Shown: piece after piece, positions 2,843 through 61,199 of the stretch | Numbering within the stretch: the stretch's first letter is position 1 | Layout of the letters: each line of letters starts with the position of its first letter | The notes under the pieces: generated by a model | Told to the model about the DNA's origin: nothing | Databases searched by the model: none | Seen by the model: the letters and a program-made list of their open reading frames with translations, nothing else | Origin: a virus | Taxonomy: Duplodnaviria > Caudoviricetes | Length of the DNA stretch: 61,199 bases | Virus record (IMG/VR): IMGVR_UViG_3300025141_000092 | Coordinates: 1-61,199 of that record | Direction: 5' to 3' (one strand) | Position numbers and translations under genes: made by a program

Positions 2843-4543
2843 TTAGACATAGCTAGGAACAGTAGTACCGTTGAAGGCAGTGTTCTTAGCGAATGGCTCG
2901 TAGAGGAAGTTAGAGGTGGGACCGATGATCCTGATAACACGATAGAAGTTGTTGTATGGTTCAATCGTGACCTTACCGTAGCGGGTAAGGATACCCTTCC
3001 TGGGCTGGAATGATTCGGGATCAACGATGGTGGGCAACTGCTGAAGTGGGATGTATGGAGCGTAAACATACCCAGCATCCATAGCGTTATCACCTTTGTA
3101 GCCCATGAGAATCTCATCAGTGGGGAACATTGGATCAACATAAAGATCGTAGCGACCCATGAACTTACCTTTGAATGCGATAGCACTCTTAGAGATGTTC
3201 GTAGGACCATCATTAGGCAGGATACCTCCCTCAAGCTTAGAAGCACTTTCGAGAAGTGAAGCAACTAAGGGTGAAGTAAGAATCCAGTTACCAGGACCAC
3301 GCATCGTTGTCTTGTAGATGTCTTGCGAAGCAAGGTTGATCACAGCAAGAAGGTTTGCGTACATCTCGCCAACGTGACGGGGGTACAAGGTCGCGCCTTG
3401 GCTTCTGCCGAAATCAATCGTATAAATGTTTGATTTTTGGGCAAATGCACCAAGCTCAGTGTTGGTTCCTGCACCTTCGGCTCCATCAAAGTCGTAGGTG
3501 AACTGCTTAGGAACGAAGAACCCAGCACTATCGGAGTCCTGGATACCAGCGAATGAAGATCCAGCAGTGCTGACTCCACCCATGTTGATGTAGTCGTTAT
3601 CCATTTGACCGATAGCAGCACCACCGTTGAGAGTCTTATGATAACCATAAGCAATCATGCGGAGGTCTTCAATAAGTTCACGGTCAACCTCAAGAGCAAG
3701 TTCCTTCGAAAGAAGGGTAGTAAGCTCTTTTTCAAGATCGAGGTTGTGATAAGCCTTAAGGTCTTGAGAAGCCTCAAGAGTCCAAAGGGCTCTCATCTTA
3801 CGAGTGTTTGCAACGACTGCTTCCTGCTCAATGTGGAAGGTCATCTCTGGAATACCAGTACCAGTTAAACGCTCACCAGCCGAAAGCTGATAACCGTAAA
3901 TAGCACTAGCGTTAGGGAAGGCAGCAATCTGACCACCCATGGTACCAGAAGGGGCACCAACACCAGCTACCTGACTTTCACCACCAAGCGCCGTGTCGTT
4001 AAGACCACTAACGGTATCAAGGACGTTAGAAACGTCGAAGCCATCATCAGCGTTATCACCGTCAAGGCCACCAGTTGTGCCTCGGGCACCGTTGATGCCG
4101 AAGGTGTTAGTACCTGCGACTGTTTGCTGGTCGTGATTTCCTTGAGAACCAATAGCCGAAGCGGTGAGACCTTTGTAAGTAAGGTTGAACTTACTGTACA
4201 CAGTTTCAACAGTGCTACCGTTCTTAACACGGTCGTTACCAAGATAGAAAACTTGGCTTACTGGGCCTTGCATGGGCTGAACACCAACAAGGTTGTTGGC
4301 AATCAGATTAGGGTAGACCCGACGAACAAGAGGGAAAGCGAACTTTTGGAAAGTACCGAGTTGACCAGTTGTGGTTGCTCCTGCGGTAATTGCCTCGTTC
4401 ATTTTCTCCTCTACAATAGACTTTGCTTGGTTCTCAAGAAGTTGTGCTGTAACTCGACGGGTATACTCGTTATCGATACCCTCAAGGACAGGCTCCCACT
4501 TTTGGACCAGCGTTTCATCAGTTTGATGCATTACATCTAGCAT
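2843..4543 (-). CDS. gp23: Major capsid protein (T4 gp23-like)
   Basis: KWEPVL, LLENQ, PLVRR...VGVQPMQGP, RKMRALWTLEASQDLKAYH and YAPYIPL...DPESFQPRKGILTRYG motifs. Confidence 0.97.
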   Translation of the reverse strand: MLDVMHQTDETLVQKWEPVLEGIDNEYTRRVTAQLLENQAKSIVEEKMNEAITAGATTTGQLGTFQKFAFPLVRRVYPNLIANNLVGVQPMQGPVSQVFYLGNDRVKNGSTVETVYSKFNLTYKGLTASAIGSQGNHDQQTVAGTNTFGINGARGTTGGLDGDNADDGFDVSNVLDTVSGLNDTALGGESQVAGVGAPSGTMGGQIAAFPNASAIYGYQLSAGERLTGTGIPEMTFHIEQEAVVANTRKMRALWTLEASQDLKAYHNLDLEKELTTLLSKELALEVDRELIEDLRMIAYGYHKTLNGGAAIGQMDNDYINMGGVSTAGSSFAGIQDSDSAGFFVPKQFTYDFDGAEGAGTNTELGAFAQKSNIYTIDFGRSQGATLYPRHVGEMYANLLAVINLASQDIYKTTMRGPGNWILTSPLVASLLESASKLEGGILPNDGPTNISKSAIAFKGKFMGRYDLYVDPMFPTDEILMGYKGDNAMDAGYVYAPYIPLQQLPTIVDPESFQPRKGILTRYGKVTIEPYNNFYRVIRIIGPTSNFLYEPFAKNTAFNGTTVPSYV

Positions 4544-11000: not shown

Positions 11001-14000
11001 GTTTCCAGGATTTTGTAGTTACAAGACAATGATTTCCATTATCATCTATATAAGACCCCGTTGCTACTAAAGTAGAGTCTCCTTTAACCTTACATTTACA
11101 TTCAGTGTCTTCAGGACCACCCCCTGGCCCTGGCCCTCCAGGCCCTCCTGGTCGAGGAGGTGCAGGAGCGACATCCCCAACCTTGCATCCCGCTTCGCAA
11201 GCAGCTAAAGCTGCAGCTTGTGTGTTTCCTTTATACTCTCCGCTGTTCCCAGGCGTTTGCACACACTGCCACTCATAGGTGGTTTGACCTCCCCCCACTT
11301 CTCCTAGGCCACCGTCTTCCGATAAAGTGGGTTCACACCTATAAGAATACAACGGAGGGGGATCTGTCGTCGGCGGCGATGGAGGAACCTCGCCCCCTGT
11401 TGTGGGGGGATCTGCATCTAATGTATATCTCCACTTTATACATCTTTCATCACAGCAATGAATTCCTGTGCAACACCCTACCTTCGCAGCAGATTGTGCC
11501 GCACAAGCTCCCCCAGGTGCCTCAACGCTCGTTTGACCCTCCCCCGTATAATTATCCTCCCCATACGGGTTTGTCCACCCGTCAGGACCATCCTCCAGAG
11601 AGCCCATTTCGTCATTCCAGGAGTCGGAATTAACGTCATTATCTGGATCCGAGCTTGGTCCAGTATAAATACATCTCTGCTGCCAACATTTTTCAACTTC
11701 AATTGTTTTAGGAAATCCTGATTCTGAAATAACTTCCCCAAGAATAACTACATCATCAGGGAAAGATACCTCAATGGTTGGTCCTCCTCTAATTCGACAA
11801 TTACAGAACCCCTCATTAGGAGTATTAGCACTTCCACCACCTCCACCACCTCCAGGAGGAGGAGTGTCAGGTTGAGGTCCCTGAATATCGGGAACACAAA
11901 TCGCTCGACATTGGTTCGCAGTGGGGTAAGCTCCTAACGTATTCGGGGGTGCAGGGAAACACGACCAGAGCCCAGCCGCATAAGCGCACGCCCACCAAGG
12001 ATCTACAGAAGGCGGCCCTGGGTCTCCAGTGGTTGGACCAGGGGGCTCTGGCTCGCGTACACATTCTAAATGGCAATCCGCTGCTTTATCATAACTACCA
12101 GGAGGAGGAGGTTGCTCCGTAGGTAATGTTACCTTTTGGCATTCTTCATTAATAGGCAACCCACAAGTCCACCAATCAGTATACCCCGTTAAAGTCCCTC
12201 CTCCCGTAGTGGGAGGCGTAGGAGAAGTTGGAAAAGTTGGTGCAGTTGGTGCAGTACGACTACCAGGTGTGAATACCGCATCAGGCAAACATATTTTCAT
12301 GCAATCTTCGTAGTTTGCACCATCTGCCATTACAGAAGGTATATTTTGATCATAAGCGCAACCTAAGGCTATGTTTTGAGAATTCCTCATACAAACATAA
12401 CCGCCGAAACTGTGTGTTCCTCCTCCTCCCCCTCCTGGAGTAGTGGGACCAGTAGCTACTATGCATTGTCCATCACAAGCAGCTTTGCTTCTCCATACGG
12501 TAGGATCAGTAGGCTCAGCCAACACACTCCACACACACTGAGTTCCAGGAAAGGGACATACGTATCCACCTAATTCCCAAGTCGGTCCCGTTGGCCTAGG
12601 AGAAGTGGGAAAAGTTGGTGTTGTAGGATCTGTAGGTACTGTGAACGGTCCTCCTCCTGGAGTAGTTCTTGGCCTGCCCCCAGGATCCCAATCATTACTA
12701 CATATCTTCTCACAAGCTTTTCGTGATGGTTGACCTGGGTAAGGGCCTCCAGTGTCTGCATATGATTTACGAACACATTCCCTTCGAACTCCTAAATAAG
12801 GTACAGATCCTACCTCCTCACATTTCCATCTCACTACTGAATCAGGGGTAACAGGACCAGTTGGGAGAGGTCGAGTACCAGGGGGAGTGGGAGGGGTGGG
12901 AGGGAGCGTAGGAGGGCGAGGGCTTATTGGCCCAGGGTCAAGATCACTATCACACTGAGCCTCACATTCACTCTTCTTCTCGTGCCCAGGAAGATTAAAA
13001 CCATCAACATACCACCTACGAATACATCTGCGCTGAACTCCTAAGTAAGCTACAGTTCCAATCGCCTCACACACCCAACGAGAAACGGTCACTTTCCCTG
13101 GAGTATCGGGTCCAGGCAGGGTAGGCTTGCCTGGGCCAGGAGTTGTGGGAACTGTCCTCGGTCTTGTAGGATCGGGATCGGGATCTTCTCCACCTGTAGT
13201 GGGAACTGTCTTCGGCTTTGTGGGCATCGGAGGCGAAGGGGGGGTGGGGCTTGTAGGTACCGTCCCTATTCCTGGATCATCAGGTCCAAAGCAATCTTGT
13301 TCACATAATTCTCTTGAAGGATAGCCTTGATTAGGATCACCCAAATAAGATTCACAGCGCCGATTTACGCCTCCTAAAGGTGTTCGTCCTCCAGTGACGG
13401 GTCCTCCCTGCACACATCGCCAGCGTTCCGAAAAATTACCTCCTCCTGGGTCTGTATCAGGTCTTCCTTTGTCGCCTCGCGGACCACAGTTTGTTTGACA
13501 CACACCTAATTCAGCCCAAGATGTAACGCCATCAGCCTCCAAGTTACTTACAAAATAACAGTTCCAATAAGGATCCATTCGACATTTATAAGCTCCTGGA
13601 CCTTGTGTAGTAGGTCTTCTTACCCCAGGAGTAGGAGTGGTAGGAGGAGGTTTGCAAGCTTCTTCGCACTCTCTCGGAGTTGCCCAAATCTCAGGTTCAT
13701 TAGGGTCTCCATCAGGAGAATGAAAACAATACCAGTAAGGTGCCCTCCTGCACTTATACCCTCCGTCGCCTCCACCCGTGGTAGGGCCTGGAACTTTAGT
13801 GGCTGGTCTTGTGCCAGGGCCAGTAGGTGTTGTACGAGGAGGTCGAGAAGGTCTCGTAGGCCCATCATTTCTACACAACCTCCTGCACTTCTCTGGGGTA
13901 TCATGCCCGTCATCTCCGTGAGCAAGTTTGCGTACACAGTGTCTTGTGGGGGTTACCTCAGCCCCTCCTACTCCTCCCGTTGTTATAGGTCCAGTATGCA

Positions 14001-41812: not shown

Positions 41813-42794
41813 TGTGTCACCTCAATACATTAGAGACTACCTCCTTGAGAATTTTGGAGATAGCGGCAAACTATCGGCAAATAATGCCGAATTCATCATG
41901 CCCTCTTTATTTATACCTGATGACTGGAAAAGACATCTCAGCATCAATATAGAGACTGGGCTGTGGCAGTGCTTCAAATCTGGTAAAAAGGGAAATTTCG
42001 TAGGATTTTATGCCGAAGTAGAGGGGATAAGTTACCTTAAAGCTCAAACTGATTTGATCCTAAAAAACTTTGATTTCATAGGTGTAGAGCCTATTGCCGA
42101 AGAAAAAGTACCTAAAAAGAACGCAGAGATAGACCCTTCTTCTCTTACACCTATCAATATCGAGTCGGCTTACAGCGAAGATGCAGCCGTTCAAAACGCA
42201 TGGTCCTTTCTTTTTGGAAGAAAATTATTTAACGAGGAGACTTTTGAATCTGAGCCGTTTTATCTTTGTTCCGAAGGGAGATTCGCAGGAAGGCTAATAA
42301 TTCCCTTTGCTAAAGATGGCAGCGTATACTACTTCCAGGCTAGAGCACTAGGAGATCAAAGTCCCAAGTATCTTAACCCTGCTTCTGAAGGGGCTGTAAG
42401 GTCCTCTGACGTACTTTACCCCTTCGATGAGTCCCAAGACTATGTGGTGGTCTGTGAAGGCCCCCTGGACGCTGTAGCGCTTCTCAGGCAACGTATTAAC
42501 GCCACCTGCACCATCGGCAGTAGTTGCTCTAAAGCGCAGGCAGAAATACTTCGTGATTTTGGAGGGAAAATTATCCTAGGATACGATAATGACGCTGCAG
42601 GGCAAAAAGGTATTAGATCATTCGAGCGTCTTAGAAAAGAAATGAGGATGACAGGATTTGCGGTCTGCCCACCACCCTCGGGATACAAGGATTGGAATGA
42701 AGCTCATATTGATGGGGAGAACCTCAACTCCTGGGTTGTTAATAATTCAGTACCTTATGATTTCGAGTACCAAATTAAAGCTGGACTAAACTAA
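41805..42794 (+). CDS. DNA primase (TOPRIM)
   Basis: IIPF...YFQAR, PKYLNP, VCEGPLDA, YDNDAAGQKG and KDWNE motifs; the Zn-binding domain is degenerate (WQCFKSG only). Confidence 0.9.
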   Translation: MNIVSPQYIRDYLLENFGDSGKLSANNAEFIMPSLFIPDDWKRHLSINIETGLWQCFKSGKKGNFVGFYAEVEGISYLKAQTDLILKNFDFIGVEPIAEEKVPKKNAEIDPSSLTPINIESAYSEDAAVQNAWSFLFGRKLFNEETFESEPFYLCSEGRFAGRLIIPFAKDGSVYYFQARALGDQSPKYLNPASEGAVRSSDVLYPFDESQDYVVVCEGPLDAVALLRQRINATCTIGSSCSKAQAEILRDFGGKIILGYDNDAAGQKGIRSFERLRKEMRMTGFAVCPPPSGYKDWNEAHIDGENLNSWVVNNSVPYDFEYQIKAGLN

Positions 42795-43356
42795 TATCAA
42801 AATTCGGGCACTGAGTTTGCGCTGCTTCCGCAACTTTCATAAAGTTTGAATTAAATTGACTAGAAGTGTCGAGGGGAGTATTTAGCGTATACGCTCCTGG
42901 AATTCTGCTTGTTACAACATTAGCATTTCGTGAACAATTACTTGCAACATCTGTAATTAGTGCTTTTCGTCTCGTTATTCCCGCTGCCGTAGTCCAGAAA
43001 GTTCCTGATAAGCCCCATCCGCCAACGTCACTGTCAGAGATGTAATCTATATCCATAGCAGAAAACCCACCGCTACAATAGGAAGCAGGTATAATTGATT
43101 GATTTACTTGTACGTCGAAATTTACGTCAACATAAGTAAAAGAAATTGAGGGACACCCAGAGAGTGCCCCGCCCCCTGCTGCTTGTGGAGTACTATTAAA
43201 AACCCAAGCTCGTGTCCACATCCCCGTTAGGTTTTGAATGCTAAAGAACCAATCAATAAATTCGCATGAAGATGAGTCTCCTGATGCATTAAGTTGGTTA
43301 AAACTGGGGTTAAAAGCTGAATTTTCTTTTGCTGTTCTTGAGCCTGCTAGTGCCAT
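42775..43356 (-). CDS. Hypothetical (probably virion) protein
   Basis: GAGGA RBS; late-promoter-like GTACATA upstream. Confidence 0.6.
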   Translation of the reverse strand: MALAGSRTAKENSAFNPSFNQLNASGDSSSCEFIDWFFSIQNLTGMWTRAWVFNSTPQAAGGGALSGCPSISFTYVDVNFDVQVNQSIIPASYCSGGFSAMDIDYISDSDVGGWGLSGTFWTTAAGITRRKALITDVASNCSRNANVVTSRIPGAYTLNTPLDTSSQFNSNFMKVAEAAQTQCPNFDISLVQL

Positions 43357-59504: not shown

Positions 59505-59827
59505 TGCAACTACTCACTGACAAAATCAAAAAGGCTTTGCCTTCTCTCTACTCCACTGAAGACATTCCTTGCGAGGATAAGCAGATCGTGGTGAAATTCT
59601 TCAACCCCCTGGGCTCTCAGACTTGGGAGATCACAGAGGGATCATACCAAGAGGACATGGACACATGGCTGCTCTTTGGTAAGTGCGACCTTGGCTATGG
59701 TGCTGAGTGGGGATATGTTACCCTCTCTGAGCTTGAGTCCGTAGATGTTGGCTTAGGTATGGGCATTGAGCGTGATATCTGCTGGAACTCTCACCTCCAC
59801 GATGAATGGAACACGATGGAGGCTTGA
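59504..59827 (+). CDS. DUF2958-like protein
   Basis: VVKFFNPLGSQTWEITE, LFGKCDLG, EWGYVTLSEL and IERD motifs; start reassigned to MQLLT. Confidence 0.8.
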   Translation: MQLLTDKIKKALPSLYSTEDIPCEDKQIVVKFFNPLGSQTWEITEGSYQEDMDTWLLFGKCDLGYGAEWGYVTLSELESVDVGLGMGIERDICWNSHLHDEWNTMEA

Positions 59828-59946: not shown

Positions 59947-59975
59947 TTGCAAGTGCTCCCAGCCCGTGGTATAAT
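59947..59975 (+). promoter_or_regulatory. sigma70-type promoter
   Basis: TTGCAA-N17-TATAAT with an extended -10 TG. Confidence 0.8.
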
Positions 59976-60020: not shown

Positions 60021-60049
60021 TGGACAGCCAGCCCACCATTTGGTATAAT
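60021..60049 (+). promoter_or_regulatory. sigma70-type early promoter, leaderless
   Basis: TGGACA-N17-TATAAT-N6-ATG (60056), extended -10. Confidence 0.85.
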
Positions 60050-60055
60050 ACACCC

Positions 60056-60424
60056 ATGGAAAAACGAACTCAAAGAACTCCGCAAGAGATCATCGCGGAG
60101 ACAGAGGCCAAGCTGGCTCGCCTTCAAATGAAGGCAGCAAAGGCTGAAGCCAAATCAAACCCCGCAGTTGCTGATCTCTACGAGCAACTGGACACCGTCA
60201 ACAAGGACATTCGTGAGGCCAAGAAGGGCCTTGGGTCTGGTCCCCAATCGTTCGATGCTCGGATTGAGAAGCATCAGGTCTGGATCGAGAAGATCGAATC
60301 AGCCCGTGAGGACGCGCAGGAGCTTCTTGGCTTGGCCGAGGCGCAAAAGACTGCTCTCACCTCTGAGATCCAAACGGTGATCTCTTCAATCGTCACCCCT
60401 AAAGAAATCTCCGAAGGGGCTTGA
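60056..60424 (+). CDS. Coiled-coil early hypothetical protein
   Basis: Start reassigned to MEKRTQRT at the predicted +1. Confidence 0.75.
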   Translation: MEKRTQRTPQEIIAETEAKLARLQMKAAKAEAKSNPAVADLYEQLDTVNKDIREAKKGLGSGPQSFDARIEKHQVWIEKIESAREDAQELLGLAEAQKTALTSEIQTVISSIVTPKEISEGA

Positions 60425-60449
60425 ATTCTCCGAGGGGCCATGGTATAAT
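60421..60449 (+). promoter_or_regulatory. sigma70-type promoter driving the 60476 gene and the ribozyme locus
   Basis: TTGAAT-N17-TATAAT, extended -10. Confidence 0.8.
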
Positions 60450-60475
60450 GGTCCCTCACAACAACAAAGGAAAAG

Positions 60476-60694
60476 ATGCTCAACAACATCACCAACATCG
60501 TGCGCTCGAATCAGAACGCAGTCATGGTCAAGGTCGGTAGTGCTACGAATTCGGTGTACACGATCTTTGATCTCCGCTCACGTAGCAACAGCTACACAGG
60601 CACTCTTTCAGGGGCCAAGTCCGCTTGGAATCGGAAATACAAAAACTCTAGGCAATTCGTTGCCAAGGGTAACCACAGGTATCTTACAGCCTAA
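60476..60694 (+). CDS. Small basic early protein
   Basis: AAGGA RBS; own promoter. Confidence 0.7.
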   Translation: MLNNITNIVRSNQNAVMVKVGSATNSVYTIFDLRSRSNSYTGTLSGAKSAWNRKYKNSRQFVAKGNHRYLTA

Positions 60695-60702
60695 AGGGTA
60701 AG

Positions 60703-60799
60703 ACTCGTCTGGGCGAGTATAAACAGCCATCAGGCCCAGAGCGTCCCAAAGGGAATGGAGAGAATTGCGATAACGCTACCTCTTCCCTGCGGGGGTTGG
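60703..60799 (+). ncRNA. Pistol self-cleaving ribozyme
   Basis: P1 ACUCG/CGAGU; loop UCUGGG pairs with CCCAGA (pseudoknot); AUAAACAG linker; P2 CCA/UGG; GCG core; P3 UCCC/GGGG extended by AGGGAA/UUCCCU; G-U cleavage site at 60795/60796. Confidence 0.88.
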
Positions 60800-60804
60800 A
60801 AATT

Positions 60805-60980
60805 CGGAGAGGCATCGAGAGGCATCTTGATGCGGGTCGCATAATAAGAGTTTTATGGCTCTCTAGTGCATCGTAGCCTGAACCCAGAGCGGAATCCCGT
60901 GAGGTATGGCGCGAGTTGTGATCGAACCAGTCATATGGTAGCTTGCAGGTAATACATTAAACCCTGTCCCTTTCTCTCCG
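60805..60980 (+). ncRNA. Candidate structured tRNA-like RNA
   Basis: Closing stem CGGAGAG/CUCUCCG; arms GCAUC/GAUGC, GGGU/ACCC, AGAGUU/GGCUCU, CC-GUGA-GG and GCAGG/CCUGU; no ORF listed in the track. Confidence 0.5.
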
Positions 60981-60990
60981 TCTTTCCTTT

Positions 60991-61065
60991 CCCCTTCACT
61001 GCTCCCGCTCTTTTTCTACGCATTATCAATTGAAAAAGAAAACGAGCAGTCGAGGGGTTTTCTTC
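60991..61065 (+). terminator. Long imperfect hairpin followed by a U-rich tract
   Basis: CCCCT/AGGGG, ACTGCTC/GAGCAGT and TCTTTTTC/GAAAAAGA stems, then TTTTCTTC. Confidence 0.55.
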
Positions 61066-61080
61066 TTGACAGATTTCGGG

Positions 61081-61199
61081 GGCCGCCCCGAGCCCCCTAA
61101 CCCCTTGTGGATCAACAACTTAGGTGCTGAACCAATCTTAGGACTACCCAAAAGAAATCAGAGAAATCACCTTCGGTTTGCCGAGTTTTGCCCCTTATA
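61081..61199 (+). repeat. Second copies of both dispersed repeats
   Basis: 61081-61122 matches 59872-59913; 61163-61199 matches 58801-58837. Confidence 0.9.

Follow-up and report, generated by a model that had tools for sequence, protein, structure and literature searches.

The window analysed here is a stretch of 61,199 bases that makes up a complete IMG/VR virus record (IMGVR_UViG_3300025141_000092), classed as linear and about 55% complete. Near its 3' end, a promoter-like site, a small open reading frame (ORF), a pistol self-cleaving ribozyme, a structured RNA of ~190 nt and an intrinsic terminator were found in this order on the + strand. Such a unit had been proposed in an earlier note on this DNA, and it exists and is conserved. 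The sigma-70-type promoter (60421–60449) was assigned by its match to the consensus (TTGAAT, 17 nt, TATAAT; 10/12) and carries TG before the –10 hexamer. Four promoter-like sites were counted in the region against 1.0 expected from shuffles, and TG-extended –10 sites lie within 500 nt at 59947–59975, 60021–60049 and 60421–60449. The ORF (60476–60694) encodes a conserved small basic protein of 72 aa, p72, with 18 aligned relatives at 54–85% identity. No Pfam or PHROG family was matched by p72. Its AlphaFold model has four strands and a helix (pLDDT 77.5), and the Foldseek search of this model against PDB returned no match at E <= 0.001 and offered no hint of RNA binding. The stop codon of this ORF is followed after 8 nt by the start of the pistol. 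The RNA extends from the 3' cleavage product of the pistol to the end of its terminal helix (60796–60987), and the terminator (60991–61067) consists of a long hairpin (60991–61057) followed by UUUUCUUCUU. The hairpin has a folding energy of –29.1 kcal/mol (z = –4.72), which was reached by none of 200 shuffles. A simple terminator scan missed it because its loop is too long.

The pistol (60703–60800; RF02679) scored 60.1 bits against a gathering score of 34.5 and was the sole Rfam family at gathering level. It carries a 41-nt insertion in P3. The pistols of all six related loci examined also passed the gathering score. The cut was modelled between G60795 and U60796, which in the Rfam alignment occupy the two columns at the junction of P3 with the 3' strand of P2. 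The 3' cleavage product is thus modelled to begin at U60796, the start that the earlier note had given. The P1 loop forms a pseudoknot with the strand that follows P2, and this pseudoknot covaries (CUGGGC/GCCCAG and CUGAGC/GCUCAG) in 28 distinct members of the family; the pistol of the related locus L007 has a further version, UCGGGC/GCCCGA. P3 differs in both sequence and length among the same 28 members. Therefore, to judge from these changes, the pistol itself is under selection in the RNA-bearing family. According to PMC4604425, the pistol class cleaves in an Mg-dependent reaction at ~10 per min under physiological conditions and gives products with a 2',3'-cyclic phosphate and a 5'-OH, and many pistols are located in phages. 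By analogy with these other members, the window pistol would cleave itself to leave the same two ends. The proposal that the ribozyme releases a structured non-coding RNA with a 5'-OH stands as a prediction, with the chemistry taken from the same source.

The window sequence alone folds at a minimum free energy of –61.5 kcal/mol (z = –1.82), a value that 12 of 200 shuffles equal or surpass. No ORF of at least 30 aa lies on the + strand within 60796–60985. A single sequence is insufficient for a decision, and homologues were collected in several ways. The search with p72 gave 35 candidate viral stretches, of which six were confirmed, and all six have a pistol directly behind the ORF. Four of these six, together with locus L019, share the downstream RNA with evident compensatory changes. 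A two-block pattern of the RNA found 42 metagenome loci and 41 of them hold the RNA. The remaining one (L168) was rejected as a chance match inside a coding region, with no covariance-model match. The DNA pattern TCGCATAAYAAGRGTT gave 35 loci; 28 were searched with the model, which added only L019, and the other seven were contigs already counted. Another pattern, CTCTCCGTCTTTCC, gave 113 loci. The covariance model found no real match in 100 of them (best E 0.35), and nothing new appeared in the remaining 13 (L143–L155), which had regex coverage only. In total, a covariance model built from five sequences placed the RNA at 47 places (36 distinct sequences) in 48 sources, all marine viral and metagenome contigs, in a collection biased by the search pattern. 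The comparison with these relatives exceeds chance, as set out below. Therefore, the ~190-nt RNA behind the pistol is a real structured RNA on comparative grounds.

The linkage of the RNA with the pistol was complete wherever it could be judged. A pistol core directly precedes the RNA in 44 of the 44 loci with at least 90 nt upstream, and the other three are cut off. Of 28 distinct sequences downstream of the RNA, 25 have a hairpin with a U-run, and the terminators of different loci are unrelated in sequence. The alignments thus show an order of pistol, RNA and terminator that is fixed across the family. The 72-aa ORF lies upstream in 41 of the 44 judgeable loci. In the other three (L162, L181 and L166), a different ORF runs straight into the pistol. 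The ORF and pistol occur without the RNA in L007/L214 and in L207. The sequence behind the L007 pistol is not homologous to the RNA, and the best hit of an unfiltered model search (9.8 bits) lay elsewhere in that locus. Therefore, the protein and the RNA are separable by their distribution, and the ORF is a frequent but dispensable neighbour. The idea that p72 is an obligatory partner of the RNA was not borne out. Mean pairwise nucleotide identity over 120 pairs from 16 loci was 72% for the RNA, 72% for the neighbouring ORF and 40% for the sequence after the RNA. These identity levels point to selection on the RNA comparable to that on its coding neighbour.

A refined structure of 65 pairs was tested on 31 distinct full-length sequences. 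Standard pairs fill 94.5% of its 1971 pair cells, compared with 82.5% after shuffling. Changes on both sides were seen in 31 of the 65 pairs, a number reached by none of 500 shuffles, and sliding the partners by 1–3 columns left only 7–11 such pairs. The covariation score was 0.374 against 0.159 in shuffled alignments. An earlier, model-based alignment behaved in the same way: 96.5% of cells were paired against 86.6% shuffled, and both-side changes affected 20 of 51 pairs, with 0/500 shuffles reaching 20 and 3–8 in the slid controls. The covariation check suggested by the earlier note on homologues downstream of pistols thus came out in favour of a structured RNA.

The fold supported by this alignment is closed by two terminal helices, P0 and P1, which lead into a three-way junction with P2 and then into a tight five-way junction formed by P3, P4–P5, P6–P8, P9 and P10. 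Altogether, the ~190 nt accommodate two junctions and 13 helices together with a covarying kissing loop. P0 pairs 60798–60802 (GGAAA) with 60983–60987 (UUUCC) and is near-invariant. P1 pairs 60805–60811 (CGGAGAG) with 60974–60980 (CUCUCCG) and is 96.5% paired. The P2 hairpin (60812–60820 with 60825–60833, loop GGCA) has nine base pairs, of which eight changed on both sides, with 98.9% of cells paired. P3 (GGG 60834–60836 with CCC 60968–60970) closes the five-way junction; it is 100% paired, and one of its three pairs changed on both sides, being G-C in 27, A-U in three and G-U in one sequence. The five-way junction has few unpaired bases, and its first and third arms are tied by the kissing loop. 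The first arm consists of the invariant P4 (60839–60842 with 60866–60869) and P5 (60847–60850 with 60861–60864), which is 100% paired with both-side changes in two of four pairs and ends in a 10-nt loop, L5. P6 (60870–60878 with 60908–60916) is the site of an optional inserted hairpin in relatives. Its outer part is 97.7% paired with both-side changes in four of five pairs; the register of the window, which is misaligned at this point of the alignment, was assigned by hand there. A mutual-information scan extended P6 outward by one further covarying pair, A-U in 22, U-A in four and G-C in three of the 31 sequences, and 23, four and three in the scan itself. P7 (ACC 60882–60884 with GGU 60903–60905) and P8 (60889–60892 with 60897–60900; 100% paired, 3/4 both-side changes) complete this arm. 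The P9 arm is closed by a short helix, P9a, which is 81.1% paired with both-side changes in three of four pairs in relatives; its register in the window is uncertain and was read by hand. P10 (60945–60949 with 60963–60967) has five base pairs, is 100% paired with both-side changes in two of them, and carries the 13-nt loop UAAUACAUUAAAC. The invariant G-U pairs 60842–60866 and 60889–60900 fit the + strand only.

The kissing loop pairs UAUGG (60854–60858) in L5 with UCAUA (60931–60935) in the loop of P9 (60930–60935). It is 95.5% paired over its 5 bp, and four of the five pairs changed on both sides. In the mutual-information scan of the whole alignment this contact, non-nested and four adjacent columns against four, ranked second. 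Its complementarity is kept in at least six versions: UAUGG/UCAUA in the window, UGUU/AACA, ACAAAA/UUUUGU, ACCAAA/UUUGGU, CACAA/UUGUG and GAUAAG/CUUAUC. Besides, two further signals were noticed. The column pairs 60887–60888/60895–60896, which cross P8, vary in concert, with GA..UC in 27 sequences against AU..AU in five; this may reflect alternative base pairing, a contact in the tertiary structure or common descent. A lone covarying contact joins 60853, the base before the L5 kissing strand, with 60956 in the middle of the P10 loop (U-A 21, A-U five, G-C three). It is limited to three clades and could be due to chance among many column pairs. A kink-turn reading of the loop 60885–60888/60901–60902 was rejected, as five sequences have A and U where G-A pairs are expected.

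The sequence strings on which the earlier note had built its description are all present. GGAGAG (60806–60811) begins ten bases after the cut and pairs within P1 with the CUCUCC that precedes a single G at 60974–60980. The arm described as GCAUC/GAUGC is actually the nine-base-pair P2, and GCAGG/CCUGU with its 13-nt loop is P10. The CCA/UGG hairpin is found as P9 (60927–60929 with 60936–60938); its stem turned out to be weak, with 74.2% of cells paired. On the other hand, two elements had to be given up. The GGGU...ACCC pairing is unsupported, since GGG pairs instead with CCC in P3 and the three sequences with A-U in P3 keep the ACCC site unchanged. No GNRA hairpin is supported either, and the loop closed by CGG/CCG is AAUC.

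In our judgement, the element probably represents a structured RNA of a new family, encoded by phages, and the pistol ribozyme would make its 5' end. The comparative sequence evidence for it is the conservation, the covariation, the fold and the order of pistol, RNA and terminator. Beyond these, we infer transcription, cleavage, a strand swap from pistol P2 to P0, stability and a trans-acting role. The sigma-70-type early promoter would transcribe the RNA as the tail of the small-ORF mRNA, and the pistol would fold and cut before the polymerase has finished the ~190 nt that lie ahead of the P0 3' strand. The cut at G60795/U60796 would put a 2',3'-cyclic phosphate on the end of the mRNA and a 5'-OH on the RNA. 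The liberated segment UUGGAAA at the 5' end of the RNA, which is partly the P2 3' strand of the pistol, would then pair with UUUCC at the RNA 3' end as P0. This pairing would capture the new 5' end, free the product from the ribozyme and close the compact fold, and the hairpin terminator would end the transcript. A 5'-OH start spares an RNA from nucleases that depend on a 5'-monophosphate. The RNA is expected to be stable and to act in trans, binding a host or phage factor during early infection. The small-ORF cassette around the RNA has its own strong promoter matches, a layout typical of early phage regions. Therefore, a trans-acting early role is the most likely one. The RNA seems to be neither a tRNA mimic nor the leader of a downstream gene.

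Several points weigh against this explanation. The proposed function is guessed from the architecture and from the location in an early region. The homologues all come from one marine phage clade, so that many of the changes are inherited rather than independent. P0, P1 and P4 show no both-side change and are supported by complementarity, and our own search pattern fixed parts of P1 and P4, which inflates their invariance. A pistol also occupies the same gene position without the RNA, being followed directly by a terminator in L207 and by unrelated sequence in L007, and its primary role may concern the upstream mRNA. As to expression, parts of the stretch are contained in 20 sequencing runs labelled marine metagenome, and one of them is an RNA library (X20). 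This library gave a single 156-nt contig (depth 26, nine differences) on 60819–60960 inside the RNA. The contig is a weak hint of expression only, by which transcription is not shown, and it could derive from DNA in the library. No contig of X20 covered the ORF, the pistol, the terminator or the region downstream, and this absence carries no evidential weight. Two further observations were made on the same locus in the DNA runs. In run X5, 60812 and 60974 lie on one contig (depth 36.6) from which the intervening 161 bases of the RNA core are missing; it may be a variant in which the core is replaced or lost. The RNA locus is broken into ~100-nt contigs and several related contigs end there, which suggests a hot spot of microdiversity.

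The pistol without the RNA also bears on a second explanation, in which the RNA is a cis accessory: the fold would time pistol cutting or set the 3' end or lifetime of the small-ORF mRNA, with no role after release. G60798–A60800 are common to P0 and pistol P2 (UGGA 60797–60800, read from the Rfam alignment), which makes the two structures mutually exclusive, and the pistol stays behind the 72-aa ORF where the RNA is missing (L207 and L007). However, a ~190-nt fold of 13 helices with a covarying kissing loop far exceeds what is needed to sequester four bases. In addition, the RNA is kept where the upstream ORF differs (L162, L181 and L166), and conservation of its junctions and loops reaches the level of coding sequence. 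We therefore hold this explanation to be unlikely.

The ends and the kissing loop of the RNA permit another reading, that it is a catalytic or self-assembling RNA. It would be an RNA machine of T4-like marine phages, either a ribozyme that uses its reactive 5'-OH and the juxtaposed 3' end for ligation or circularisation, or a multimer assembled through L5–L9 pairing between molecules in the manner of phi29 prohead RNA. Conserved junction nucleotides adjoin covarying peripheral helices, and P0/P1 bring both ends together. The loop complementarity persists in at least six versions, and covariation is blind to whether the pairing is intra- or intermolecular. However, the Rfam scan gave no second ribozyme or cleavage site at the 3' end. 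No RtcB or Rnl2-type RNA ligase was found in the relatives G000–G003, and neither was found in two complete relatives. No circular joint was seen among the contigs, and with two arms of similar length an intramolecular kissing loop is simpler. Such a machine is quite improbable. If it were true, the pistol would be a dedicated maturase, which would be the first defined biological role for this ribozyme class.

The earlier note had read the RNA as a tRNA mimic that might act as a decoy towards anticodon nucleases or synthetases, a reading that extends to other tRNA-binding enzymes. The RNA does have a 7-bp terminal helix followed by a single G and a 5-bp hairpin near the 3' strand, the same phage family encodes four ordinary tRNAs and a possible mimic of the tmRNA tRNA-like domain, and pistols lie near tRNA genes in some other phages. 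However, ARAGORN found no tRNA or tmRNA gene in the window or in eight related loci, seven of which hold the RNA. The Rfam scan of 60400–61199 at E up to 10 gave no tRNA, tmRNA or other tRNA-like match. The hairpin has a 13-nt loop instead of the 7-nt T loop, and P3 (3 bp) and UUU separate it from the terminal helix, so that no T stem is stacked on an acceptor. The supported structure lacks an anticodon arm and a 3' CCA; the tail G-UCUUUCC folds back as P0, and the topology is that of a three-way and a five-way junction with a kissing loop rather than a cloverleaf. As none of the defining features tested was found, the RNA is, to judge from its sequence and predicted fold, not tRNA-like. Genuine tRNA-like elements are readily detected in the same phage family, where the tmRNA-domain mimic scores 76 bits on the tmRNA model, and therefore the pistol-linked RNA is not one of them. 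Mimicry of tRNA was thus judged very unlikely.

The possible tmRNA mimic of the relatives is an observation in its own right. It is an RNA of 81–82 nt that matches both ends of the tmRNA model at 64–76 bits without the messenger part (L002 5528–5609, G001 3956–4036, G002 42768–42848 and G003 13803–13884), and it lies ~2.2 kb downstream of the pistol RNA. The copy in L002 has a G3-U70 pair, a T arm and ACCA, and only 13 nt stand in place of the 306 nt that form the messenger and pseudoknot part in tmRNA. This RNA may mimic the tRNA-like domain of tmRNA and could engage AlaRS or SmpB.

Hardly tenable, finally, is a riboswitch-like aptamer that governs the adjacent terminator and thereby read-through into the next small genes: a junction-type fold with a closing terminal helix, an intrinsic terminator within ~5 nt and an aptamer-like design of multi-helix junction and kissing loop, similar to lysine and purine aptamers, would suit it, but the terminator hairpins are unrelated across loci and hence appear to form no co-evolving expression platform, identity downstream of the RNA averages only 40%, TTGACA and TATAAT motifs that resemble promoters stand, by eye, in front of the next genes, no Rfam riboswitch was matched, and a ribozyme-cut 5' end is, to our knowledge, not a feature of known riboswitches.

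The new RNA family whose 5' end a pistol would make belongs to uncultured marine phages. Their portal protein is a distant T4-type gp20 with at most 35% identity to any cultured phage. Two complete relatives of ~130 kb carry exactly one pistol and one RNA apiece. A pattern scan of prokaryote genomes, one genome per species, gave no match to the RNA, so that no prophage copy was seen and no host was identified. Upstream of the unit lies a DUF2958 ORF (59579–59824; E 8e-16), which together with the three TG-extended promoter-like sites resembles an early-gene cassette of small ORFs. A coiled-coil ORF follows at 60056–60421. A tblastn search detects a homologue of it in most loci, and a protein-pattern scan of viral contigs confirmed none of 24 stretches as relatives. 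On the 3' side, a conserved leader-like motif (61172–61197) lies within a conserved stretch (~61117–61199) that is cut by the contig end. The motif was found once per locus, 180–400 nt 3' of the RNA, in 21 of 254 loci, several of which are duplicates of the same place. In relatives it stands directly 5' of a small Cys-rich ORF, and it is a candidate for a common leader at the 5' side or for a promoter module.

Other viral pistols were gathered by a pattern of the pistol core, and none of these 37 loci holds the structured RNA. By eye, many have an ORF directly behind the pistol. Some lie in tRNA-rich regions, and the pistol of L222 is 290 nt upstream of a tRNA array. Stretches of at least 900 nt without a 60-aa ORF follow the pistols of L212 (4566–5465), L235 (716–1616, – strand) and L237 (29–929, – strand), and L232 (207 onward) and L235 have short motifs in common behind their pistols. 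The Rfam scan of the stretch behind the L235 pistol gave no family, and an alignment of the long ORF-free stretches behind other pistols was uninformative at 47% column identity. Pistols may head other uncharacterised phage RNAs.

The RNA was finally compared with known systems. Against Rfam 15 (4227 models), 60801–60982 gave no match at E up to 10, and weak matches fell on the terminator hairpin; the search for an already described family suggested by the earlier note thus returned nothing. The 7-bp end helix and the 5-bp hairpin near the 3' strand are shared with tRNA (RF00005) and the tRNA-like domain of tmRNA, whose defining features, as far as tested, were otherwise not found. Lysine and purine riboswitch aptamers are alike in having a junction closed by a terminal helix and two arms joined by covarying loop-loop pairs. 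Phi29 prohead RNA is alike in its covarying loop-loop pairs, its phage origin and its paired ends. In both cases the resemblance is of design only. The kissing arms are not adjacent in the present RNA; no ligand, expression platform or packaging role is indicated, and the Rfam models Lysine, Purine and Phage_pRNA gave no match at E up to 10. A complexity of this degree is usual for aptamers, ribozymes or the RNAs of ribonucleoproteins. The ribozyme itself is a member of the pistol class (RF02679) by its score and its covarying pseudoknot, and it is located in a phage like many of its class, whereas the RNA at 60796–60987 lies outside the pistol model. No report of a conserved RNA cargo behind pistols, and no biological role for pistols, was found in the parts of the literature available to us, which included portions of PMC4604425, PMC6765202 and PMC10879173 (subscription papers not covered).

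The nearest known system in kind, by analogy, is the theta ribozyme-tRNA unit of gut phages, as described in PMC10879173. In both, a non-coding RNA of a phage is joined to a small self-cleaving ribozyme, which sets, or here would set, one end of the RNA without host nucleases. The theta units differ in having an HDV-like ribozyme instead of a pistol, in trimming the 3' trailer of a tRNA instead of making a 5' end, and in carrying tRNA instead of an unclassified multi-junction RNA of ~190 nt. A ribozyme-matured phage non-coding RNA is already known in kind, and the RNA fold itself appears to be new. The RNA lies in an early region of uncultured marine phages, with the possible tmRNA-domain mimic nearby in relatives, and RNA-based host takeover is worth testing. 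The pistol has been known since 2015, and its fusion with the RNA in 44 of 44 judgeable loci would give it a concrete job. The result leads to a testable statement: much like theta ribozymes, which trim the tRNAs of phages, a pistol would generate the 5' end of a non-coding phage RNA.

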